Source: Escherichia phage vB_EcoM_WL-3. From it: a DNA stretch of 64,000 bases. Below are positions 2,250 to 33,722 of this stretch, piece after piece. The notes under the pieces were generated by a model. It searched no databases. It saw only the letters and a program-made list of their open reading frames with translations, and was not told the DNA's origin. Position 1 is the first letter of the stretch. The number at the start of each line of letters is the position of its first letter. Made by a program: the position numbers and the translations under genes. The stretch lies in the sequence record MT968995.1; one strand, written 5' to 3'.

Positions 2250-3450
2250 ATTTTGTAATAATGTCAAATTGTTCTTTAAAGCAGAAGCTTGAATCTTGAT
2301 GCTGATACAAAAATTCATAAGCTTTTTCGCGTTCGCGGTCATAAAGAGCTCGGTCAGATGACAGTTCTTTAATACGTTCAAATGTTGATTCCATGTCATT
2401 TTCATCAAACCAAACGATACCGCTATCATGAGAAATTAATGGAGTATTATCAACACGGAATTTTAAATTTTCGCCCGTAGATTTCCAAAATACTGGAATT
2501 GTTCCGCATGCACCAAGCTCGAGATGAGTATATTCTAAAGAACGTTGTAGATATTTTTTATCTAATTTACTCAGCTGATAACCAAATCCGGATTTACTCA
2601 TACGTTCAAGCATTTCGCTATTTACATAACGGTCAAGAATTTGCGTTGGCAAATTAGGAGCAATTTTAATTTGGTCTACTTGATGAAGACGATAATACTC
2701 GTATGGAATTCCTTTTTCTTTAATAGGAATGAATGCTGGAGAACGTTCCAGACCTTCCATAATAGTACTTAGTCCTGCAGGTTTAAGATGTTTTTCGTGA
2801 AAATCAAACATCTGGTAAAAACCTTTCCATGTAGTCGTACGACCAATCCAACGGTTGATATTCATGTTAATTTCAGAAACATCTTTCCAGTAGGTTGATC
2901 GAACCTTCGCAATATCCATAGGAGGCTGAAAGTTATATACGGTCGGTGCTTCTTCAATATCATCAAACAAAGAAACAGTTTCCGGATACCATTCTTTCAT
3001 TAAAACTTTATTAAAATCGCCATTATCAGAATGACTAAAAATAACATCAGCTCGACGAACAGTTTCTTCTAATCCCAAATTTCGGCGTAAAGAAAGAGAA
3101 GAATGGTCATGCTGATAAACTACAACACGAACCGAAGGTTTAATATTATCAATAATTTTTTTATAGTTATTAATTGTGTCTTCTTCGACTGAAGTAGCAG
3201 GAACTGAATTGATAATTAGAATATCACAATCATTTACCAGCTTAAGTGTTTTATCGTATTCTTTTGCCAATAAAACCGGAATTGAAAATGATTTATAATC
3301 ATGCGCGCAATTACGAGTAAATGATTTATCTTTAGCATAAACCAAAGTTACTTCATGACCATTTTTAATAAACCAATCACGTTGCTCAAGAGAAAATTTA
3401 GTTACACCGCAACCTTCAAGACCTCGAGCCATAAAAATACATACTTTCAT
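2248..3450 (-). CDS. a-gt: DNA alpha-glucosyltransferase
   Basis: 400 aa; N-terminus MKVCIFMARGLEGCGVTKFSLEQRDWFIKNGHEVTLVYAKDKSF matches recalled T4 AGT. Confidence 0.93.
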   Translation of the reverse strand: MKVCIFMARGLEGCGVTKFSLEQRDWFIKNGHEVTLVYAKDKSFTRNCAHDYKSFSIPVLLAKEYDKTLKLVNDCDILIINSVPATSVEEDTINNYKKIIDNIKPSVRVVVYQHDHSSLSLRRNLGLEETVRRADVIFSHSDNGDFNKVLMKEWYPETVSLFDDIEEAPTVYNFQPPMDIAKVRSTYWKDVSEINMNINRWIGRTTTWKGFYQMFDFHEKHLKPAGLSTIMEGLERSPAFIPIKEKGIPYEYYRLHQVDQIKIAPNLPTQILDRYVNSEMLERMSKSGFGYQLSKLDKKYLQRSLEYTHLELGACGTIPVFWKSTGENLKFRVDNTPLISHDSGIVWFDENDMESTFERIKELSSDRALYDREREKAYEFLYQHQDSSFCFKEQFDIITK

Positions 3451-3500
3451 TTAATATCCTCATTGTTTTGGTTTATTTTACCAAAAATTTATAAAGCAAT

Positions 3501-3520
3501 ATAGGAGCCGAGGCTCCTAT
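3501..3520 (-). terminator. GC hairpin ATAGGAGCC-GA-GGCTCCTAT
   Basis: Inverted repeat overlapping stop of small ORF 3517-3690. Confidence 0.4.
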
Positions 3521-3690
3521 CCACATAATACACCATACAGAGGCTCATTAGAGCTTCTAAATTTTATGCGCTTATACGTTATAGTTCCTTCTGCTTTAGC
3601 TTTATCATGAGACTCTTTAAAACGTCTCATCATTTCTACTTTAGAGGAACGAATTTTATTATAATCTATTTCAGAAGTCTGGGTGTTCAT
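3517..3690 (-). CDS. Hypothetical small protein (57 aa, below ORF-track cutoff)
   Basis: Hand translation MNTQTSEIDYNKIRSSKVEMMRRFKESHDKAKAEGTITYKRIKFRSSNEPLYGVLCG; ATG next to upstream stop; followed by hairpin. Confidence 0.35.
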   Translation of the reverse strand: MNTQTSEIDYNKIRSSKVEMMRRFKESHDKAKAEGTITYKRIKFRSSNEPLYGVLCG

Positions 3691-3693
3691 CTT

Positions 3694-3900
3694 TCACAGT
3701 TGCCACCATTTTTTGACTTGATAAGAATCAACCCACACTTTCATATTAGGGTCTGCTCTTACAATAGGAGGATTAACTTCTTTGATTGAACTATCATGGT
3801 ATTCTTTTTCAGAAATTTTCACGCAAAGATGACCATTCAAAGATTCAGTAAATCCTGCATTAATTTTAAGACGCTTGAATTTTACGTGTGTAAGCATCAA
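3694..3900 (-). CDS. Hypothetical small protein
   Basis: ORF track 68 aa. Confidence 0.45.
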   Translation of the reverse strand: MMLTHVKFKRLKINAGFTESLNGHLCVKISEKEYHDSSIKEVNPPIVRADPNMKVWVDSYQVKKWWQL

Positions 3901-4183
3901 TCATATCCTCAATCTGCGATCTAGTAGTCTTCCAAAGAATACTAATGAGTTCATCGTTATATGGCTGTTTTAGAATATCCCGACTTTTCTTGATAGCATA
4001 TTCGTATTGAGCGAAATTATTGTTTTCAGCTGCAATCTGAGCGTGTTTATAAAGACGGTTCAGTTCGCGTTTATTTTTAGACAATAACTTATTTGCTTTT
4101 CTTTCTGCTTCAAGACGGTTCTTTTCTTCAATAGAAGAAATAAGCTTTTCCACTTCATCATTAATTTCGGGTTTATCAGTCAT
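3866..4183 (-). CDS. Hypothetical coiled-coil protein
   Basis: ORF track 105 aa, Lys/Glu-rich heptad-like sequence. Confidence 0.55.
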   Translation of the reverse strand: MTDKPEINDEVEKLISSIEEKNRLEAERKANKLLSKNKRELNRLYKHAQIAAENNNFAQYEYAIKKSRDILKQPYNDELISILWKTTRSQIEDMIDAYTRKIQAS

Positions 4184-5833: not shown

Positions 5834-5871
5834 ACATTATCCTCAATTGCGTTAAAATTTTATTATCCAAA

Positions 5872-28679: not shown

Positions 28680-29096
28680 TTAAATGTAAATATTTTTGCC
28701 GTAATACTTATACCAGTGTGGCTTCATTAAAATTTTTTCATCGAGTCGTTGTTGACTCAACTTAATAGCTGATTTGCATGGATTATAATCATTTTTCCAT
28801 TCTACTGGAATATCGCTGATGTCAGGAACTTCAGTATCTTTTATACTGAACCCGCGTTTTAAGCATTCCGTTATAATGTCCGATTGACGCTTTCGCAAAA
28901 ATTCTAACTTATCGTAAAAGAAAGTAACATGACCAGAACCTAAAATAAATTTAGAAGATATTTTAAAATCTTTAACGCGCTTACCGTTTGCCACATGCTT
29001 ACGAACTATACCAAAAACACGCGGCAATTCACGGTATTCTGCGATTAAATGTTGATCAGCAAGTTCAGATACTAAAGTCAAATTAATACGAGTCAT
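28680..29096 (-). CDS. denV: Endonuclease V (pyrimidine-dimer DNA glycosylase)
   Basis: 138 aa; [17 protein letters not shown]...[10 protein letters not shown] matches recalled T4 DenV with substitutions. Confidence 0.9.
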
Positions 29097-29155
29097 TTTA
29101 TCCCTCCAAGTAACTGTGAATATACTATCACAATTCTAGGAGAAAGTAAATAGCT

Positions 29156-29686
<531 letters not shown>

Positions 29687-30142
29687 TTAAAAGAGGCTGT
29701 TCATTATTCGGTAAAGTGAAGGACCCATCACATATTGCCACTGAGTACGAGGAATAAGAGCAAAAGCATCCATCTCTGGAATCATAACACCATCTTTATT
29801 TTCAAAATAAGACTCGCAATGGCAATTTCTAAACATCTCATGCTCTACTGGAATCGTATAATAAAATAACTGAAGGTCTTTATTACTAGAATATTTAAAT
29901 ACACCTAGGTCTTCTAGAAGGTCTGGATTATAATTGCTAAAACCAGTCTCTTCTAAACATTCTCTTCGTGCTGCATCTAGTGCGTTTAAATCAGAATTTT
30001 CTACACGGCCTTTTGGAATATCCCAGCGATGTGCCATCATTCCAGGCTTACGAGAACCAGTAACCCGTCCCATGAATAAATCTTTATCTTCTGTCATAAA
30101 GATAATACCAGCTGATAGTGTTTTCATTTTAATTTCCTGCAT
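29687..30142 (-). CDS. nudE: Nudix hydrolase
   Basis: 151 aa; Nudix box GRVENSDLNALDAARRECLEETGF; alternative start ATG 30127 overlapping upstream stop. Confidence 0.8.
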   Translation of the reverse strand: MQEIKMKTLSAGIIFMTEDKDLFMGRVTGSRKPGMMAHRWDIPKGRVENSDLNALDAARRECLEETGFSNYNPDLLEDLGVFKYSSNKDLQLFYYTIPVEHEMFRNCHCESYFENKDGVMIPEMDAFALIPRTQWQYVMGPSLYRIMNSLF

Positions 30143-30384
30143 TCAGTGATAAAGTTATTTAAATTTTGAGTATATTTCTTTTCATCAAAAATCTTTTGTT
30201 GTCTGCGTAGCCGCCATGGCATTTCTATGAACGTGTACCATATCCCAGATAATATTGCTGCTGTAAAAATATTAACAAGTATGGTTAAAAGAATCCAATC
30301 TCCTATTCTGTCCATTGGATTTTTTATAAAAAAGTAAAATATGAATGATGTCACAGGAAGACTAATAATATACCACAGAATCAT
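30124..30384 (-). CDS. Small membrane protein (e.x cluster)
   Basis: 86 aa; two hydrophobic segments; ATGA-coupled. Confidence 0.5.
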   Translation of the reverse strand: MILWYIISLPVTSFIFYFFIKNPMDRIGDWILLTILVNIFTAAILSGIWYTFIEMPWRLRRQQKIFDEKKYTQNLNNFITECRKLK

Positions 30385-30611
30385 AATTTATCTGTGAACC
30401 AATCAGCGTTCGTTAACTTAGCGCGACCATTATAAATACACACGAATTTATCATCTGTTGCAGTAGATGGCTTAACTGGTTGATATCCCATTCTAAACTC
30501 CCTAATTAACAAATTTTTCATATCTTCGGAACAGCCATTCCAGTCAACTCTATCAACTGGAATGCCATCATCCCCATCATCTAAATCATACCAGCGAGTT
30601 TTTAAAATCAT
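30381..30611 (-). CDS. Hypothetical small protein (e.x cluster)
   Basis: 76 aa; ATGA overlaps on both sides. Confidence 0.5.
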   Translation of the reverse strand: MILKTRWYDLDDGDDGIPVDRVDWNGCSEDMKNLLIREFRMGYQPVKPSTATDDKFVCIYNGRAKLTNADWFTDKL

Positions 30612-30868
30612 TTAATTTTCCTACAATCACTCACAAACTCTTCCATTGATTCTTTTTCAATATAAGACATGTAGTTATTATATTCCTTTAATTGTATTTT
30701 GTAATCCTTTTTTCTTTGCCAATTTATTTTAAAATTATCATAATGAAAATATAGCATGGTGCCAAAGAATGAAAATAATGAAATCGCTATAGTATAACGA
30801 AGTTCACTCCAAACCTCTGTTATAATTACTGTGCCGTCGATGTTTAAAATAAAACAGTCAATTAGCAA
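30608..30868 (-). CDS. Small membrane protein (e.x cluster)
   Basis: 86 aa; hydrophobic N-terminal half. Confidence 0.5.
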   Translation of the reverse strand: MLIDCFILNIDGTVIITEVWSELRYTIAISLFSFFGTMLYFHYDNFKINWQRKKDYKIQLKEYNNYMSYIEKESMEEFVSDCRKIK

Positions 30869-30953
30869 TCCAATAAGAGACTACCCGCAAGAGCTGCAAA
30901 TACTGACACAGCAAGAATTAATAGTGCCTCGGGAAACGAATATTTGACTTTAT

Positions 30954-31346
30954 TTAGTTTTGGCTTTTGCATCGTGATTCCTTAACAAATTTCATAATTT
31001 CATTAAATTCATACATATCTAGTTTAAGCTGGTGTTCCTTTTTAATCTTTTTACACTGAGCTTTCCATTCACGTACACGTTTACGATAATGCCTTCCTTG
31101 ATACCAATATCCTACCCAATTTACAGGTACTAATAAAAATGGAACTACTAATGGAAGAATTAATACTGACAGAAATATTACACCAGATTCAATATCAGTC
31201 ATAACATCTATAACTATTCCAATAATCATTAGGATTATAAATGATACAGCTGTCACAGGACCTACTAATACATCAGTAGGAATTAGCTGGCGCTTTAATT
31301 CATACTTCAACGGTTTACTTGGAAGGTATAGTGATGGTTTTGACAT
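30954..31346 (-). CDS. Small membrane protein (e.x cluster)
   Basis: Start moved to ATG 31346 (AAGGAA SD); long hydrophobic segments. Confidence 0.5.
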   Translation of the reverse strand: MSKPSLYLPSKPLKYELKRQLIPTDVLVGPVTAVSFIILMIIGIVIDVMTDIESGVIFLSVLILPLVVPFLLVPVNWVGYWYQGRHYRKRVREWKAQCKKIKKEHQLKLDMYEFNEIMKFVKESRCKSQN

Positions 31347-31929
31347 ATTCTCTACATTCCTTAACAAATTTTTCTAGTAATAAATCGCTTTCAAAATTGG
31401 GATTTTCTACGAATTTATCAAAAAGATCATCAACAATAGTTAAGATATTCTTTTTACTAAGAATACGTTTATTTTCATGCTTCGTTTCAGAATCAACTAT
31501 AAGAGTAAAGAAATATTTCTTGCCCTGAAATTTTACAGTAGTATCAATATAAAATAAATTTGACTTTTGTAAATTACGTTTAAACCATGCGTCACTTAAA
31601 CTATAAACACCGAGATAATCAAAATCGTCGTTTAAATAACAAACCGTCCATTCAGGAGAAATGAAATCAGTAAATTCAACATCAAAATCACACGTCAATG
31701 AATGAATTGATTCAATACTGTTAATGAGTATTCCAGGACGTATTAAAGACTTTTTACCTCTAGAAAATCTTCCGGAAAGGCTTTCATCAGTTTCATATGA
31801 AGACCCCCAATAGTAATTACGTCCTTCTGCCATGCGTTTAAGAGCATTTAGTAATTGGTCTGGAACATCAACCTGTCTTTGGAACTCTTCAAACATTGAA
31901 TTGAAATCACTTTGCATTTTCATTTTCAT
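31315..31929 (-). CDS. Hypothetical protein (e.x cluster)
   Basis: ORF track 204 aa. Confidence 0.55.
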   Translation of the reverse strand: MKMKMQSDFNSMFEEFQRQVDVPDQLLNALKRMAEGRNYYWGSSYETDESLSGRFSRGKKSLIRPGILINSIESIHSLTCDFDVEFTDFISPEWTVCYLNDDFDYLGVYSLSDAWFKRNLQKSNLFYIDTTVKFQGKKYFFTLIVDSETKHENKRILSKKNILTIVDDLFDKFVENPNFESDLLLEKFVKECREYVKTITIPSK

Positions 31930-31948
31930 TCCTATTTACTCCAAGTAT

Positions 31949-31966
31949 AAGGGGCCGAAGCCCCTT
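31949..31966 (-). terminator. GC hairpin AAGGGGC-CGAA-GCCCCTT
   Basis: Stem-loop immediately after the stop of ORF 31971-32564. Confidence 0.45.
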
Positions 31967-31970
31967 ATCA

Positions 31971-32564
31971 TTATTTCAGAGAATTAATGTATTCCTGAAC
32001 ATCGGCAGAGGTAGTTTCAACCCCAGAAATATTACCGTTAAAGGTTTCAACTCGAGCAAGGGTATCTTCAATATCAACCTTAGTCAGTGCTGCAATTTCA
32101 ACTACATCATCAGCAGTACTAATTCCAAGGGCATTTGCTGCACGAGTTTCACGGATATATTCCAATTTAACCGCAAGTTCTTGACGAGCATCATCTAACT
32201 CAACTACTTTCTTGGCGATTTCAATTCGCATTTCAGCATAACCGTCAGCCTTAGTAGTCAACTGCTCAGCTGTTCGACGATATAGTAAACCGAGTTTAGC
32301 ATGCATTGTTACATCTTGGCCTTCGAAAAGAAGTTTACGAATTTCACGCTCTTTTGATTCGGCCTGTCGATTCTTTTCGATAACAAGTTCACGAATACGT
32401 TTTTCTTCGTTAATAGATTTAACAGAAGCAGTTTTTAGATCTTTAATTTTATCAAGTAGTTTTGCTGCTGCAGCAGTATACTGTTCTTCGACAGATAGAT
32501 TTTTAGCCATAGCAGAACCAAGTTTAGTGCGAATAAACTCAACAATTTTCTTCAGTGTGTTCAT
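31971..32564 (-). CDS. Coiled-coil protein, possibly PspA/IM30-like
   Basis: 197 aa; all-helical, heptad-rich; weak by-eye resemblance to PspA family. Confidence 0.55.
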
Positions 32565-32665
32565 AGTATTTCCTTAGGTTAATTGAGATTTAAAATCCGT
32601 AGGAGTATAATACTCTATCGTCAAATTATAGGCTCATAATATCTCAATCATGAGCCTGCGTAAAC

Positions 32666-32929
32666 TTATTTCATATTATTGAAATATTCTTCTGCGATTT
32701 CGTCGTTATCATGGTAAACTTTAGAAGACAGTTTAACATAACCTTCTGCTGTGAACATATTAATCACAACTTTTACAGTATACCACTGACCGTCTTCATT
32801 ACCCATTACTGCGTAAGTTTCAAACATCGGATGATCAGGACCGATAACTTTAATATCATTCACTGTATGACCGAAATCTTCTGAAACGCATTTCATAAAG
32901 AAGTTGAACAGTTCGCCGTAATTATCCAT
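32666..32929 (-). CDS. Hypothetical small acidic protein
   Basis: Start moved to ATG 32929 (GGAG SD); upstream 40 codons of the track ORF are translated promoter. Confidence 0.5.
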   Translation of the reverse strand: MDNYGELFNFFMKCVSEDFGHTVNDIKVIGPDHPMFETYAVMGNEDGQWYTVKVVINMFTAEGYVKLSSKVYHDNDEIAEEYFNNMK

Positions 32930-32969
32930 TTCATTCTCCAAGTTGTTTTCTGTATCAGTAGTTGATAGT

Positions 32970-33005
32970 TGTATAGTACCATGGAAGAACAGAGATGTAA
33001 ACAGT
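32970..33005 (-). promoter_or_regulatory. T4-type early promoter cassette (-35 GTTTACA, -10 TACTAT), near-duplicate of 19071-19106
   Basis: Minus-strand GTTTAC (32996-33001 rc), TACTAT (32973-32978 rc). Confidence 0.5.
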
Positions 33006-33132
33006 TTTGTGAAAAAATTTTTAGGGAATTCTAGGGCAGGGATGGGCAATTAAAGGATAGGATAATATATTATAAAGGGTATAAACTAAATGATGCCTAG
33101 AGAGGTCCAGAAAGGCCTAGATACCAAAAAGC

Positions 33133-33151
33133 CCTATCATTTAGATAGGGA
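33133..33151 (-). terminator. Hairpin CCCTATC-ATTTA-GATAGGG
   Basis: 7-bp stem immediately after the stop of ORF 33159-33722. Confidence 0.4.
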
Positions 33152-33158
33152 TTTAAAA

Positions 33159-33722
33159 TTATTTACCTAGTTTAGTTATTATAGCTTCGGCAGCAGCTTT
33201 TAGCTTAGATGCGGTGTTAATACGATTTTTAATTTCAGTATACGCATCGCCAAGAACGTCGAGGCTATCAGAATAAACACTTACACTATTGCGTTCGCTA
33301 TTTGAAATAGAACCTTTAGTTTTGCGGTCAAAATCGGTGTACACGTCTTGAAGATCGCGGGCTGCCTTCTTTGCATCATCCAATGCATCAAGAGCTTTAT
33401 TCAAAGCATTAACGTATTTTTTAGTGTCGAACATATTCTTAGAAATTTTAACAGGTGCGCGTTCAGGAGTAGCTAACACAGATTTAGGAACCTGAGCGCC
33501 AGATGCCAATTTCTTAGAAATTTTGAAAAATGCTTTATTGAATTTATTTTCTTGACTCATTGTAAAAGAACTATTATCGATGTTGTACATTTCAATAGCT
33601 TTAGCTTTCCACTTAAGAAAATCGCCGCGGTCTTTTGGATCCAATTGGAAGAATACTTTAGTAAGTTCTGCTTCAGATGGTAATTTTGCTGCTTCGGTTA
33701 AAAATTCGGCATAGGTTTTCAT
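33159..33722 (-). CDS. Capsid-targeted internal protein (IPIII-like)
   Basis: 187 aa; N-terminal capsid targeting sequence MKTYAEFLTEA of the MKTYQEFIAE type; basic, Lys/Ala-rich. Confidence 0.65.
   Translation of the reverse strand: MKTYAEFLTEAAKLPSEAELTKVFFQLDPKDRGDFLKWKAKAIEMYNIDNSSFTMSQENKFNKAFFKISKKLASGAQVPKSVLATPERAPVKISKNMFDTKKYVNALNKALDALDDAKKAARDLQDVYTDFDRKTKGSISNSERNSVSVYSDSLDVLGDAYTEIKNRINTASKLKAAAEAIITKLGK

Follow-up and report, generated by a model that had tools for sequence, protein, structure and literature searches.

The e.5–e.4–e.3–e.2 block

The DNA analysed here is a 64,000-nucleotide stretch of Escherichia phage vB_EcoM_WL-3 (MT968995.1), hereafter the window. Based on sequence homology, the minus-strand region upstream of nudE is the e.5–e.4–e.3–e.2 block of a Tequatrovirus (T4-like coliphage), running into nudE and the lysozyme gene e. 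The block matched PHROGs 2203 (e.2), 2330 (e.3), 2604 (e.4) and 2607 (e.5) with E values of 1e-37 to 1e-110, the annotations of T4 and phage Nami agree with the assignment, and phages EcNP1 and Nami are 97.8% identical to the region at the DNA level. Intact relatives carry four genes in the block versus six ORFs here, and both halves of each split gene match the two halves of one PHROG profile. The genes and flanking features are:

31947–31966, minus strand: GC-rich hairpin (UUCG loop) in the e.6–e.5 interval, where the block has its 5' edge
31315–31929, minus strand: e.5 orthologue, soluble, 204 aa (phrog_2607, E 9e-110; intact full-length profile match)
30954–31346, minus strand: e.4 orthologue, 130 aa from ATG (phrog_2604, E 1e-70 over residues 1–130 of 130)
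30862–30972, minus strand: e.3 N-terminal fragment, 36 aa of which about the first 32 are native, one transmembrane (TM) segment (phrog_2330 positions 1–33 of 122, E 5e-10)
30608–30868, minus strand: e.3 C-terminal remnant, 86 codons (phrog_2330 positions 35–122 of 122, E 1e-39)
30381–30611, minus strand: e.2 N-terminal fragment, 76 aa, acidic soluble domain (phrog_2203 positions 1–80 of 166, E 5e-34)
30124–30384, minus strand: e.2 C-terminal fragment, 86 aa, two TM segments and a basic tail (phrog_2203 positions 82–166 of 166, E 5e-37)
29687–30142, minus strand: nudE (Nudix hydrolase; PF00293, E 2e-13; phrog_1185), the next gene downstream in the direction of transcription

The first-pass annotation had called none of these ORFs identifiable; by PHROG matches and T4 annotation, all are orthologues of T4 e.2, e.3, e.4 and e.5. 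It had also described four hydrophobic ORFs and one soluble ORF, where we found six ORFs, two of them soluble, and had placed the cluster downstream of nudE, whereas it lies upstream because the genes are on the minus strand. A comparison with T4 e.2–e.5 (UniProt P32273, P32274, P39222 and P39223) showed that the ORFs align, with the same position (between e.6 and nudE/e), order and strand, 75–100% protein identity, and the same TM architecture and tails. Precomputed Pfam accessions exist for T4 e.2 (PF26896) and e.4 (PF26873), and the annotation of the block genes is as conserved hypothetical or predicted membrane proteins. Since the genes are long-annotated T4 ORFs of unknown function, e.2–e.5 were already known and the finding as first stated is ordinary.

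All ORF junctions in the window overlap, by 32 nt, 19 nt, 7 nt, ATGA, ATGA, and then ATGA or 19 nt. The overlapping stop/start links described earlier thus hold at every junction, but two of the stop/start junctions are products of frameshifts in e.3 and e.2; because these frameshifts split the genes, the ORFs are not all independent. The block is a tightly packed set of early small-membrane-protein genes of a T-even phage, which are probably co-translated. Loss of conservation or of TM helices had been named beforehand as a possible refutation; the ORFs are kept in relatives, and TM helices are predicted in the block proteins.

The e.5 protein (201 aa from the start annotated in some relatives) ends in ...EKFVKECREYVKTITIPSK, its gene overlapping the e.4 start by 32 nt. 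Its identity is 93–100% within Tequatrovirus and falls to about 46% in Mosigvirus, an identical protein is present in public databases, and its dN/dS is 0.07. An exhaustive HMMER search with e.5 found Tequatrovirus and Mosigvirus relatives only, besides one spurious repeat protein (P0216). e.4 has a basic N-terminus, two TM segments (residues ~31–49 and 55–73) with a short loop of acidic character, and a basic tail that ends in FVKESRCKSQN; its homologues are mostly 130 or 126 aa long, it is 81–95% identical to 503 phage records, and its dN/dS is 0.33.

Hydrophobic segments were scored as 19-residue windows with a Kyte–Doolittle value of at least 1.6. Strong segments had been claimed for four ORFs; the 130-aa, 36-aa and 30124–30384 ORFs reached the threshold, and the 30608–30868 ORF, which holds the second hydrophobic segment of e.3, was borderline (1.57). 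From hydropathy and the positive-inside rule only, e.4 and e.3 are predicted to be helical-hairpin inner-membrane proteins with both ends cytoplasmic. The C-terminal half of e.2 (e.2C), e.3 and e.4 have the hairpin architecture and the tail in common. A profile comparison for whole-protein paralogy among the three found nothing significant across the TM regions: hhalign aligned e.2C and e.3 only over a 13-column tail (P 6e-4), the other pairs gave P ~0.03, and pairwise BLASTP gave E values of 0.004–0.11. An e.4 match on protein P0051 (E 4e-10) was rejected as evidence of paralogy, P0051 being an e.4/e.2 deletion chimera.

Sequence evolution is faster in the membrane proteins than in the neighbouring genes (dN/dS 0.22–0.33 versus 0.03–0.11). 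In T4, e.2–e.5 RNA is classed as early, and all four proteins have a protein-level temporal class (PMC9697503, supplementary files 4 and 6). On the dN/dS values of 0.22–0.33 and these expression classes, e.2–e.5 are real genes. Searches of Pfam, NCBIfam and PDB sequences gave nothing informative for e.2–e.6, Rfam had no match in 29000–33500, promoter-like sites in the block were not above shuffle expectation, and a literature search for e.2–e.6 by gene name found nothing. The e.6/e.5 hairpin was the sole one found inside the block by a terminator scan, which flagged it on the plus strand, not the transcribed strand. An IMG/VR search returned only 4 related loci. AlphaFold models were too poor for use (AlphaFold2 on the single e.5 sequence, pLDDT 38; e.2 with an 18-sequence alignment, all at least 83% identical, pLDDT 52). 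We found no support for the public labels 'sulfurtransferase', 'phosphoserine phosphatase' and 'host specificity protein'.

Frameshifts in e.3 and e.2

The frameshifts were assessed by a three-way alignment (window, Nami and T4), a comparison with Nami over about 45 kb and a table of 14 genomes, with the normal lengths of e.2–e.4 taken from protein searches of relatives. Compared with T4, both e.3 and e.2 are split, in each case by a frameshift private to this window among the public collections searched; e.6, nudE and e are intact in all 14 genomes compared. The two sites are:

30877–30880: e.3 frameshift site, a 2-nt tandem duplication (plus strand AGAG here, AG in relatives)
30387–30389: e.2 frameshift site, −1 nt (plus strand TTT here, TTTT in relatives)

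In e.3, the gene strand reads GGTAGTCTCTTATTGG here versus GGTAGTCTTATTGG in relatives. Alignment with Nami and T4 and the 14-genome table showed that this +2 nt change brings a premature stop at codon 37, interrupting a frame that runs uninterrupted for 120 or 124 aa in intact relatives, and synteny showed that the position of the locus between e.4 and e.2 is conserved. The C-terminal remnant has only a TTG as a start at its 5' end, without a Shine–Dalgarno sequence; it ends in ...EEFVSDCRKIK, with an ATGA overlap between its stop and the e.2 start. The duplication was not found in 50,697 phage records, IMG/VR or metagenome contigs. e.3 is probably null in this phage.

Most relatives have an intact e.2, which is 162 aa long in 42 of 51 protein clusters and consists of a soluble N-terminal domain followed by a hairpin like those of e.3 and e.4. 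The gene strand reads GATAAATTATG here versus GATAAAATTATG in relatives, a 1-nt deletion but for which the two fragments are collinear with the 162-aa Nami gene; it was not found in phage records, IMG/VR or genome contigs. The deletion creates a premature stop at codon 77, which overlaps the native Met77 codon as ATGA, at the boundary of the soluble domain and the first TM segment. The C-terminal fragment ends in ...NNFITECRKLK, again with an ATGA overlap, here between its stop and the nudE start codon at 30127. In this phage, e.2 may be made as two polypeptides through reinitiation at the first of these overlaps.

Both frameshifts could be sequencing or assembly errors in a phage with intact e.2 and e.3: neither change occurs in any public collection searched, and the e.2 change removes one base from a homopolymer of four, a common kind of error. 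We consider this unlikely. The e.3 change is a dinucleotide duplication and not a homopolymer error, and a noisy assembly is argued against because no other conserved CDS is frameshifted across about 45 kb of comparison with Nami, where the other small indels are all intergenic or in divergent sequence. Loss of e.2 here is also plausible, because e.2 has been disrupted or lost independently in T4, L008, UFV11 and about 10% of records; the T4 lesion differs from the one in the window, being a −1 and a +1 indel with a product truncated at 102 aa. If the splits are real, the genes might still function, with the soluble domain and the hairpin of e.2 made separately by termination–reinitiation; e.2 would then be a case of natural domain fission and not a pseudogene. 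The deletion lies exactly at the domain boundary, the new stop falls over the Met77 codon, and the 86-aa hairpin-plus-tail ORF keeps its original frame. Against this, no Shine–Dalgarno sequence precedes the Met77 ATG, the arrangement occurs in no other genome among the collections searched, and the adjoining e.3 break has no usable restart, so that we regard continued function as possible but rather unlikely. The gene model is corrected to four genes, two of them frameshift-split in this phage.

A C-terminal tail motif and the boundaries of e.2

The first-pass annotation had pointed to a recurring junction sequence. Copies are indeed present (TGTAGGAAAATTAAATGA at 30608–30625, TGCAGGAAATTAAAATGA at 30124–30141 and TGTAGAGAATATG at 31344–31356), but as bare DNA the pattern TGYAGRRAA is not enriched (10 occurrences versus 6.3 expected). 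The junction encodes a C-terminal peptide, F-[VI]-x-[ED]-C-R-[KE]. In six-frame translation this peptide matched 3 times versus 0.03 expected, each time at a gene end (e.2, e.3 and e.5), and e.4 carries a variant:

31348–31368, minus strand: tail motif in e.5, FVKECRE, with the e.4 ATG directly after (RB69 e.5 has FIMECRE)
30969–30989, minus strand: variant tail motif in e.4, FVKESRC (RB69 e.4 has FVKEIRC)
30617–30637, minus strand: tail motif in e.3, FVSDCRK (RB69 e.3 ends FIKECRK)
30133–30153, minus strand: tail motif in e.2, FITECRK (Dhakavirus e.2 tail FIEECRK, with Arg as CGT)

The motif was found nowhere else in the 64-kb window, nor elsewhere in 120.7 kb of T4; DCRK and FIVYCR matches at about 12300 and 16850 were rejected, being out of frame with real ORFs. 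Three phage genera retain it while using synonymous codons (TGT or TGC for Cys; AGG, AGA or CGT for Arg), and within families the tail columns are invariant, in contrast to the variable TM segments and loop. A modest novelty here is this shared C-terminal motif, which apparently is conserved as a peptide in three genera and links four adjacent early proteins.

The motif codons carry or abut the Shine–Dalgarno sequence and ATG of the next gene, and the motif sits on the start region of the next gene even in e.4 and e.5, whose stops lie 19–32 nt further on. Because it is always so placed, part of its conservation could be at the RNA level. The junction might even be nothing but a translation-initiation cassette (Shine–Dalgarno, spacer and ATG) with the peptide as a by-product: the codons AAG GAA, AGG AAA and GAG GAA give AGGA-type Shine–Dalgarno sequences 6–11 nt before the downstream ATG, the motif in e.4 and e.5 follows the downstream start and not their own stops, and what the e.4 and e.5 tails share is a stretch of DNA, the 16-nt exact repeat AAATTTGTTAAGGAAT (repeat family D8) at 30977–30992 in the e.4 tail and 31356–31371 in the e.5 tail. 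Such a cassette, however, would leave unexplained that the Cys and Arg lie outside the Shine–Dalgarno sequence and are nevertheless kept via synonymous changes in three genera, that the upstream Phe (TTT/TTC) and Val/Ile (GTT/GTG/ATT/ATC) are kept too, and that the motif is missing elsewhere in the window and the T4 sequence despite many more tightly coupled junctions. A purely RNA-level explanation is accordingly somewhat improbable.

A gene cassette is delimited by the motif copies. In about 10% of Tequatrovirus records e.2 is missing exactly between the e.3 and e.2 copies, so that in these records and in L008 the e.3 tail is joined straight to nudE; PP01, RB32 and RB33 are among the phages that have no e.2; in phage UFV11 an e.4/e.2 chimera has formed at a 10-nt microhomology. 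In the 14-genome table, e.2 is broken or missing in T4, this window, L008 and UFV11. PeSL (promoter/stem-loop) cassettes, reported to drive modular shuffling of genes among T4-type phages (PMC2839356 and PMC4122927), similarly involve short repeats at early-gene boundaries and whole-gene gain or loss between close relatives, as for e.2. PeSL cassettes are intergenic promoter-plus-terminator units, whereas the repeats here lie in coding sequence (for a C-terminal peptide, together with the next ribosome-binding site).

A possible accessory role

The hint that the ORFs include superinfection-exclusion or lysis-timing factors is not supported. Compared by BLASTP with T4 Imm, Sp, Imm.1 and 61.4, the block proteins gave only E values above 1 (best 1.1 for Imm, at least 6 for Sp), and the hint remains an analogy. 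We know of no exclusion phenotype for the e.x genes. Imm and Sp are likewise small, early, non-essential T-even proteins acting at the cell envelope, and Imm is short with two hydrophobic segments, in which it resembles e.3, e.4 and e.2C. The F-x-x-E-C-R-K tail is missing from both, and Sp has a signal peptide and is a periplasmic protein, whereas the block membrane proteins have basic N-termini followed by TM hairpins instead of a cleavable signal sequence and a soluble domain. That the block holds five or six small genes, independent of each other but translationally coupled, with exclusion or lysis-timing proteins comparable to Imm, Sp or rI among their products, would fit the hydrophobic segments and overlapping junctions, the classing of the RNA as early by T4 omics, the 80–130 aa two-TM hairpins of the same general architecture as Imm, and the concentration of variation in the TM segments and loop. 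Its gene-count part is already refuted, since two of the junctions are frameshift products and each fragment pair corresponds to a single PHROG profile and, in nearly all relatives, to a single gene; with the BLASTP values and no Pfam family matched, we hold this reading to be very unlikely.

Taken as a whole, an e.5–e.2 block with two private frameshift splits, a shared C-terminal motif marking cassette ends and a putative accessory or docking role is the reading that we hold with good confidence, its functional step being far more tentative. e.2–e.5 would be dispensable accessory genes, because of their early expression, the fast evolution of the membrane proteins and the repeated breakage or absence of e.2. 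The conserved cytoplasmic tail might be a common docking element at the inner membrane face, through which e.2, e.3, e.4 and the soluble e.5 would bind one partner or each other, and the role could be host- or competitor-directed, for example exclusion or counter-defence. We consider this docking tail and host- or competitor-directed role possible, though doubtful, and our best guess, dispensable early inner-membrane accessory factors with a common cytoplasmic docking tail, is made with low confidence. It is a speculative and unlikely extension that the tail defines an unrecognised T-even early set (the e.2–e.4 hairpins and e.5), which would assemble through it, or dock to one common host or phage partner, on the cytoplasmic side of the inner membrane and act as a strain-variable module against the host or competing phages (exclusion or anti-defence), with the tail DNA as a recombination joint for the gain and loss of members. 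The motif coincides with the exact boundaries of an e.2 presence/absence polymorphism, which gives a concrete handle on the role of the block.

Identity and direction of the gene block

The window belongs to a Tequatrovirus, a T4-like coliphage. Its segment 29600-32600 shares 97.8% identity with phages EcNP1 and Nami and has matches in more than 500 phage records. The first-pass annotation had described a translationally coupled cluster of small membrane proteins at 30124-31929, downstream of nudE and with no identifiable member. However, all genes of the region are carried on the minus strand, so the cluster lies upstream of nudE.

Genes of the region in transcription order
31971-32564, minus strand, e.6, 197 aa
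31315-31929, minus strand, e.5, 204 aa
30954-31346, minus strand, e.4, 130 aa
30862-30972, minus strand, e.3 N-terminal fragment, 36 aa
30608-30868, minus strand, e.3 C-terminal remnant with TTG start, 86 aa
30381-30611, minus strand, e.2 N-terminal fragment, 76 aa
30124-30384, minus strand, e.2 C-terminal fragment, 86 aa
29687-30142, minus strand, nudE, 151 aa
29156-29650, minus strand, e (lysozyme), 164 aa
28680-29096, minus strand, denV, 138 aa

Comparison with PHROGs assigned e.5 to phrog_2607 (E 9e-110) and e.4 to phrog_2604 (E 1e-70), while the 36-aa and 86-aa ORFs of e.3 cover positions 1-33 and 35-122 of phrog_2330 (122 positions), and the 76-aa and 86-aa ORFs of e.2 cover 1-80 and 82-166 of phrog_2203 (166 positions, labelled 'membrane protein'). 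The same interval of T4 is annotated as e.2, e.3, e.4, e.5 and e.6, and Nami has a single 162-aa e.2 and a single 120-aa e.3. These matches and the T4 annotation place the ORFs as e.2-e.5; the first-pass annotation had thus correctly sighted a T4 gene block that is known though uncharacterised, but had given it the wrong gene count and direction.

Hydropathy analysis (Kyte-Doolittle, 19-residue windows) revealed two strong transmembrane (TM) segments each in e.4 and the e.2 C-terminal fragment (e.2C), one in the 36-aa e.3 fragment, a borderline one (1.57) in the 86-aa e.3 remnant, and none in the 204-aa and 76-aa ORFs. With TM helices predicted and homologues present in relatives, the hydrophobic small ORFs are real in outline, although their number was miscounted. 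e.2C, e.3 and e.4 share an architecture in which two TM segments separated by a short loop are preceded by a basic N-terminus or N-domain and followed by a Trp and a basic stretch, a helix of ~20 aa and a C-terminal tail, and their charge distribution fits an N-in, C-in topology. Profile-profile comparison supported only the tail between e.2C and e.3 (13 columns, P 6e-4) and gave nothing significant for the remaining pairs, and BLASTP among the three gave E 0.004-0.11, so that paralogy over the whole protein is no more than plausible.

Several neighbouring features were also observed. A hairpin, GGGGC-UUCG-GCCCC, lies between e.6 and e.5 (31947-31966); since no U-tract follows it on the transcribed strand, its likelier role is to stabilise or process mRNA rather than to terminate transcription. 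The corresponding position in RB69 holds another GC-rich hairpin, GAGGAC-UCCG-GUCCUC, with U's after it. In the window denV directly neighbours e (28680-29650), whereas ipII and ipIII separate the two genes in T4 and a 93-aa 'internal head protein' does so in Nami; close relatives thus differ here in their internal-protein content. Two copies of TATAAATA, which we take to be the T4 late-promoter consensus, closely precede the lysozyme gene e (29655-29690, minus strand).

Frameshifts in e.3 and e.2

Every junction of the block overlaps, as had been noted: by 32 nt at e.5/e.4, 19 nt at e.4/e.3 and 7 nt between the e.3 fragments, through ATGA at e.3/e.2 and between the two e.2 fragments, and through ATGA or 19 nt at e.2/nudE, depending on the nudE start chosen. 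However, three-way DNA alignment revealed that 2 nt are tandemly duplicated in e.3 (GGTAGTCTCTTATTGG vs GGTAGTCTTATTGG in relatives; plus strand 30877-80) and that a 4-base run in e.2 has lost one base (GATAAATTATG vs GATAAAATTATG in relatives; plus strand 30387-89). Frameshifts therefore account for two of the junctions described as 'translationally coupled'. The e.2 break sits exactly where the soluble domain gives way to TM1, and the stop that it creates overlaps the codon of the native Met77, so that reinitiation could still yield the membrane half. The e.3 remnant has TTG as its sole start and no Shine-Dalgarno sequence, and e.3 is therefore probably null in this phage.

Both frameshift alleles were absent from 50,697 phage records, whose best matches showed the gap, and from IMG/VR; the e.3 allele was absent from metagenome contigs and the e.2 allele from genome contigs. 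The peptides made by the frameshifts were absent among ~15 billion public proteins, where the window's e.5 was present. Over ~45 kb aligned to Nami, all other small indels were intergenic or in divergent sequence and no further frameshift occurred in a conserved coding region, which argues against simple assembly noise. Pending reads, we consider it likely that the frameshifts are genuine. Isolated indels of 1, 2 and 10 nt relative to Nami, at 5869, 10251, 32950, 33023, 34515 and 37408 in surroundings 96-98% identical, are all intergenic, some beside hairpins or upstream of start codons.

A shared C-terminal tail at the gene junctions

The recurring junction sequence of the first-pass annotation was enriched as a peptide but not as bare DNA. 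In six-frame translation of the 64-kb window, F[VI]x[ED]CR[KE] had three matches vs 0.03 in shuffles, all three being the ends of e.2, e.3 and e.5, and in T4 it occurs only at the same three places (120.7 kb searched, the late-gene block at 71.5-120 kb excepted).

Junctions on the coding strand
e.5/e.4: TTT GTT AAG GAA TGT AGA GAA T-ATG; FVKECRE, then e.4 start
e.4/e.3: TTT GTT AAG GAA TCA CG-ATG-C; FVKESRC, e.3 start inside
e.3/e.2: TTT GTG AGT GAT TGT AGG AAA ATT AAA TGA; FVSDCRKIK, stop
e.2/nudE: TTT ATC ACT GAA TGC AGG AAA TTA AAA TGA; FITECRKLK, stop

An exact 16-nt repeat (family D8) is common to the tails of e.5 and e.4. RB69 tails read FIKECRK-stop in e.3 (TGT AGA), FIMECRE in e.5 and FVKEIRC in e.4, and its e.3 keeps the motif although the following gene is unrelated to e.2. 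Dhakavirus e.2 ends in FIEECRK-stop, with CGT for Arg and TGT or TGC for Cys. The motif thus persists in other genera via synonymous changes, and since Cys and Arg lie outside any Shine-Dalgarno sequence, protein-level selection maintains these residues at least. The tail always overlies the start region of the next gene, for which the flanking K-E, E-E or R-K codons form an AGGA-type ribosome-binding site; the junction is thus doubly constrained, by the peptide and by the next gene's ribosome-binding site. In RB69 (3436-4026), just after e.3, the adjacent small ORFs 138c, 137c and 136c share a ...GWV(S/A)SS..C-stop tail, after which come TAAGGAA and the ATG of the next gene; they form a second group of neighbours in which a C-terminal, Cys-ending junction recurs.

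In the IMG/VR genome IMGVR_UViG_2974787500_000001 (L008), e.2 is missing precisely between the two copies of TGCAGGAAA, one in the tail of e.3 and one in that of e.2, so that e.3 ends in ...FVIDCRKLK-stop and abuts nudE. The same uninterrupted joint was found in PST, RB32, RB33, PP01, UFV-AREG1, VEc74 and others, making up 6 of the 60 rows sampled at even spacing, or roughly 10% of ~494 matching records, which agrees with the tblastn counts of 447 records for e.2 (at least 60% identity) vs 503 for e.4. The state lacking e.2 may stem from a deletion or be ancestral; in either case the repeated tails mark exactly where this variably present gene begins and ends. In phage UFV11, a different event, a deletion between the e.4 and e.2 copies of a 10-nt microhomology, TCCTGTGACA, produced a 106-aa chimera. 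The modest new observation is a shared tail, conserved at protein level, that doubles as a cassette joint.

Conservation, loss and possible function

By tblastn, e.4 and e.5 occur in ~500 Tequatrovirus and ~140 Mosigvirus records, with Mosigvirus identities of 55-57% and 45-47%, respectively; an exhaustive HMMER search found no e.5 homologue outside these two genera. e.3 is at the corresponding position in RB69 and HX01, and Dhakavirus has full-length e.2 homologues (195-197 aa, 29-45% identity). Homologues are 120 or 124 aa for e.3 and mostly 130 or 126 aa for e.4. In 42 of 51 protein clusters e.2 has 162 aa; the rest include 102-aa truncations of the T4 type and a few further short forms. 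In an alignment of 14 Tequatrovirus genomes, partly picked for oddities so that lesion counts are not frequencies, e.6, nudE and e were intact in all, whereas e.2 was disrupted or missing in this window, T4, L008 and UFV11, e.3 in this window and UFV11, e.4 in UFV11 (the chimera) and e.5 in L008 (a frameshift).

Mean pairwise dN/dS among ten intact genomes
e.4: 0.33
e.2 C-half: 0.28
e.3: 0.27
e.2 N-half: 0.22
nudE: 0.11
e.5: 0.07
e: 0.06
e.6: 0.03

The e-block genes are real protein-coding genes, and protein-level evolution is 2-10 times faster in the membrane proteins than in the neighbouring genes. Within families, the TM segments and short loop vary, while the juxtamembrane stretch and tail are nearly invariant.

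Individual genomes showed further lesions. The T4 reference e.2 (L002, ~3492-3960) has two indels, one of -1 (A6 to A5) and, 79 nt on, one of +1, so the annotated product stops at 102 aa; a well-conserved 161-nt remnant of e.2 that includes the ECRKLK tail is left without annotation before nudE. The tblastn match of e.2 in RB59 falls in two pieces, which may reflect a T4-like lesion. L008 (~3501-4113) lacks e.2, and its e.5 frameshift leads to a stop at codon 142. e.6 (31971-32564, minus strand; 197 aa), the most constrained gene nearby, is predicted to be largely helical, is conserved in RB69, has neither a Pfam nor an NCBIfam match, and is labelled 'host specificity protein' in some public records.

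Searches of Pfam, NCBIfam and PDB gave no match for the block proteins, structure models were too weak for use, and the public names 'sulfurtransferase', 'phosphoserine phosphatase', 'DNA primase' and 'host specificity protein' were unsupported in scans. The hint at superinfection exclusion or lysis timing fails as homology: the e.2-e.5 proteins differ in sequence from T4 Imm, Sp, Imm.1 and 61.4, with no similarity found. In T4, RNA of e.2, e.3, e.4 and e.5 is classed as early, and the proteins as early (e.4 and e.5), middle (e.2) and late (e.3) (PMC9697503, supplementary files 4 and 6). The genes are expressed early, apparently dispensable, restricted in lineage and repeatedly lost, and their membrane-embedded parts evolve fast; this pattern suggests, as a tentative and rather doubtful joint reading, that the e.2-e.5 products may be accessory inner-membrane factors directed at the host or at competitors, in which the invariant cytoplasmic tail would serve as a common docking element that also ties the soluble e.5 to the membrane proteins.
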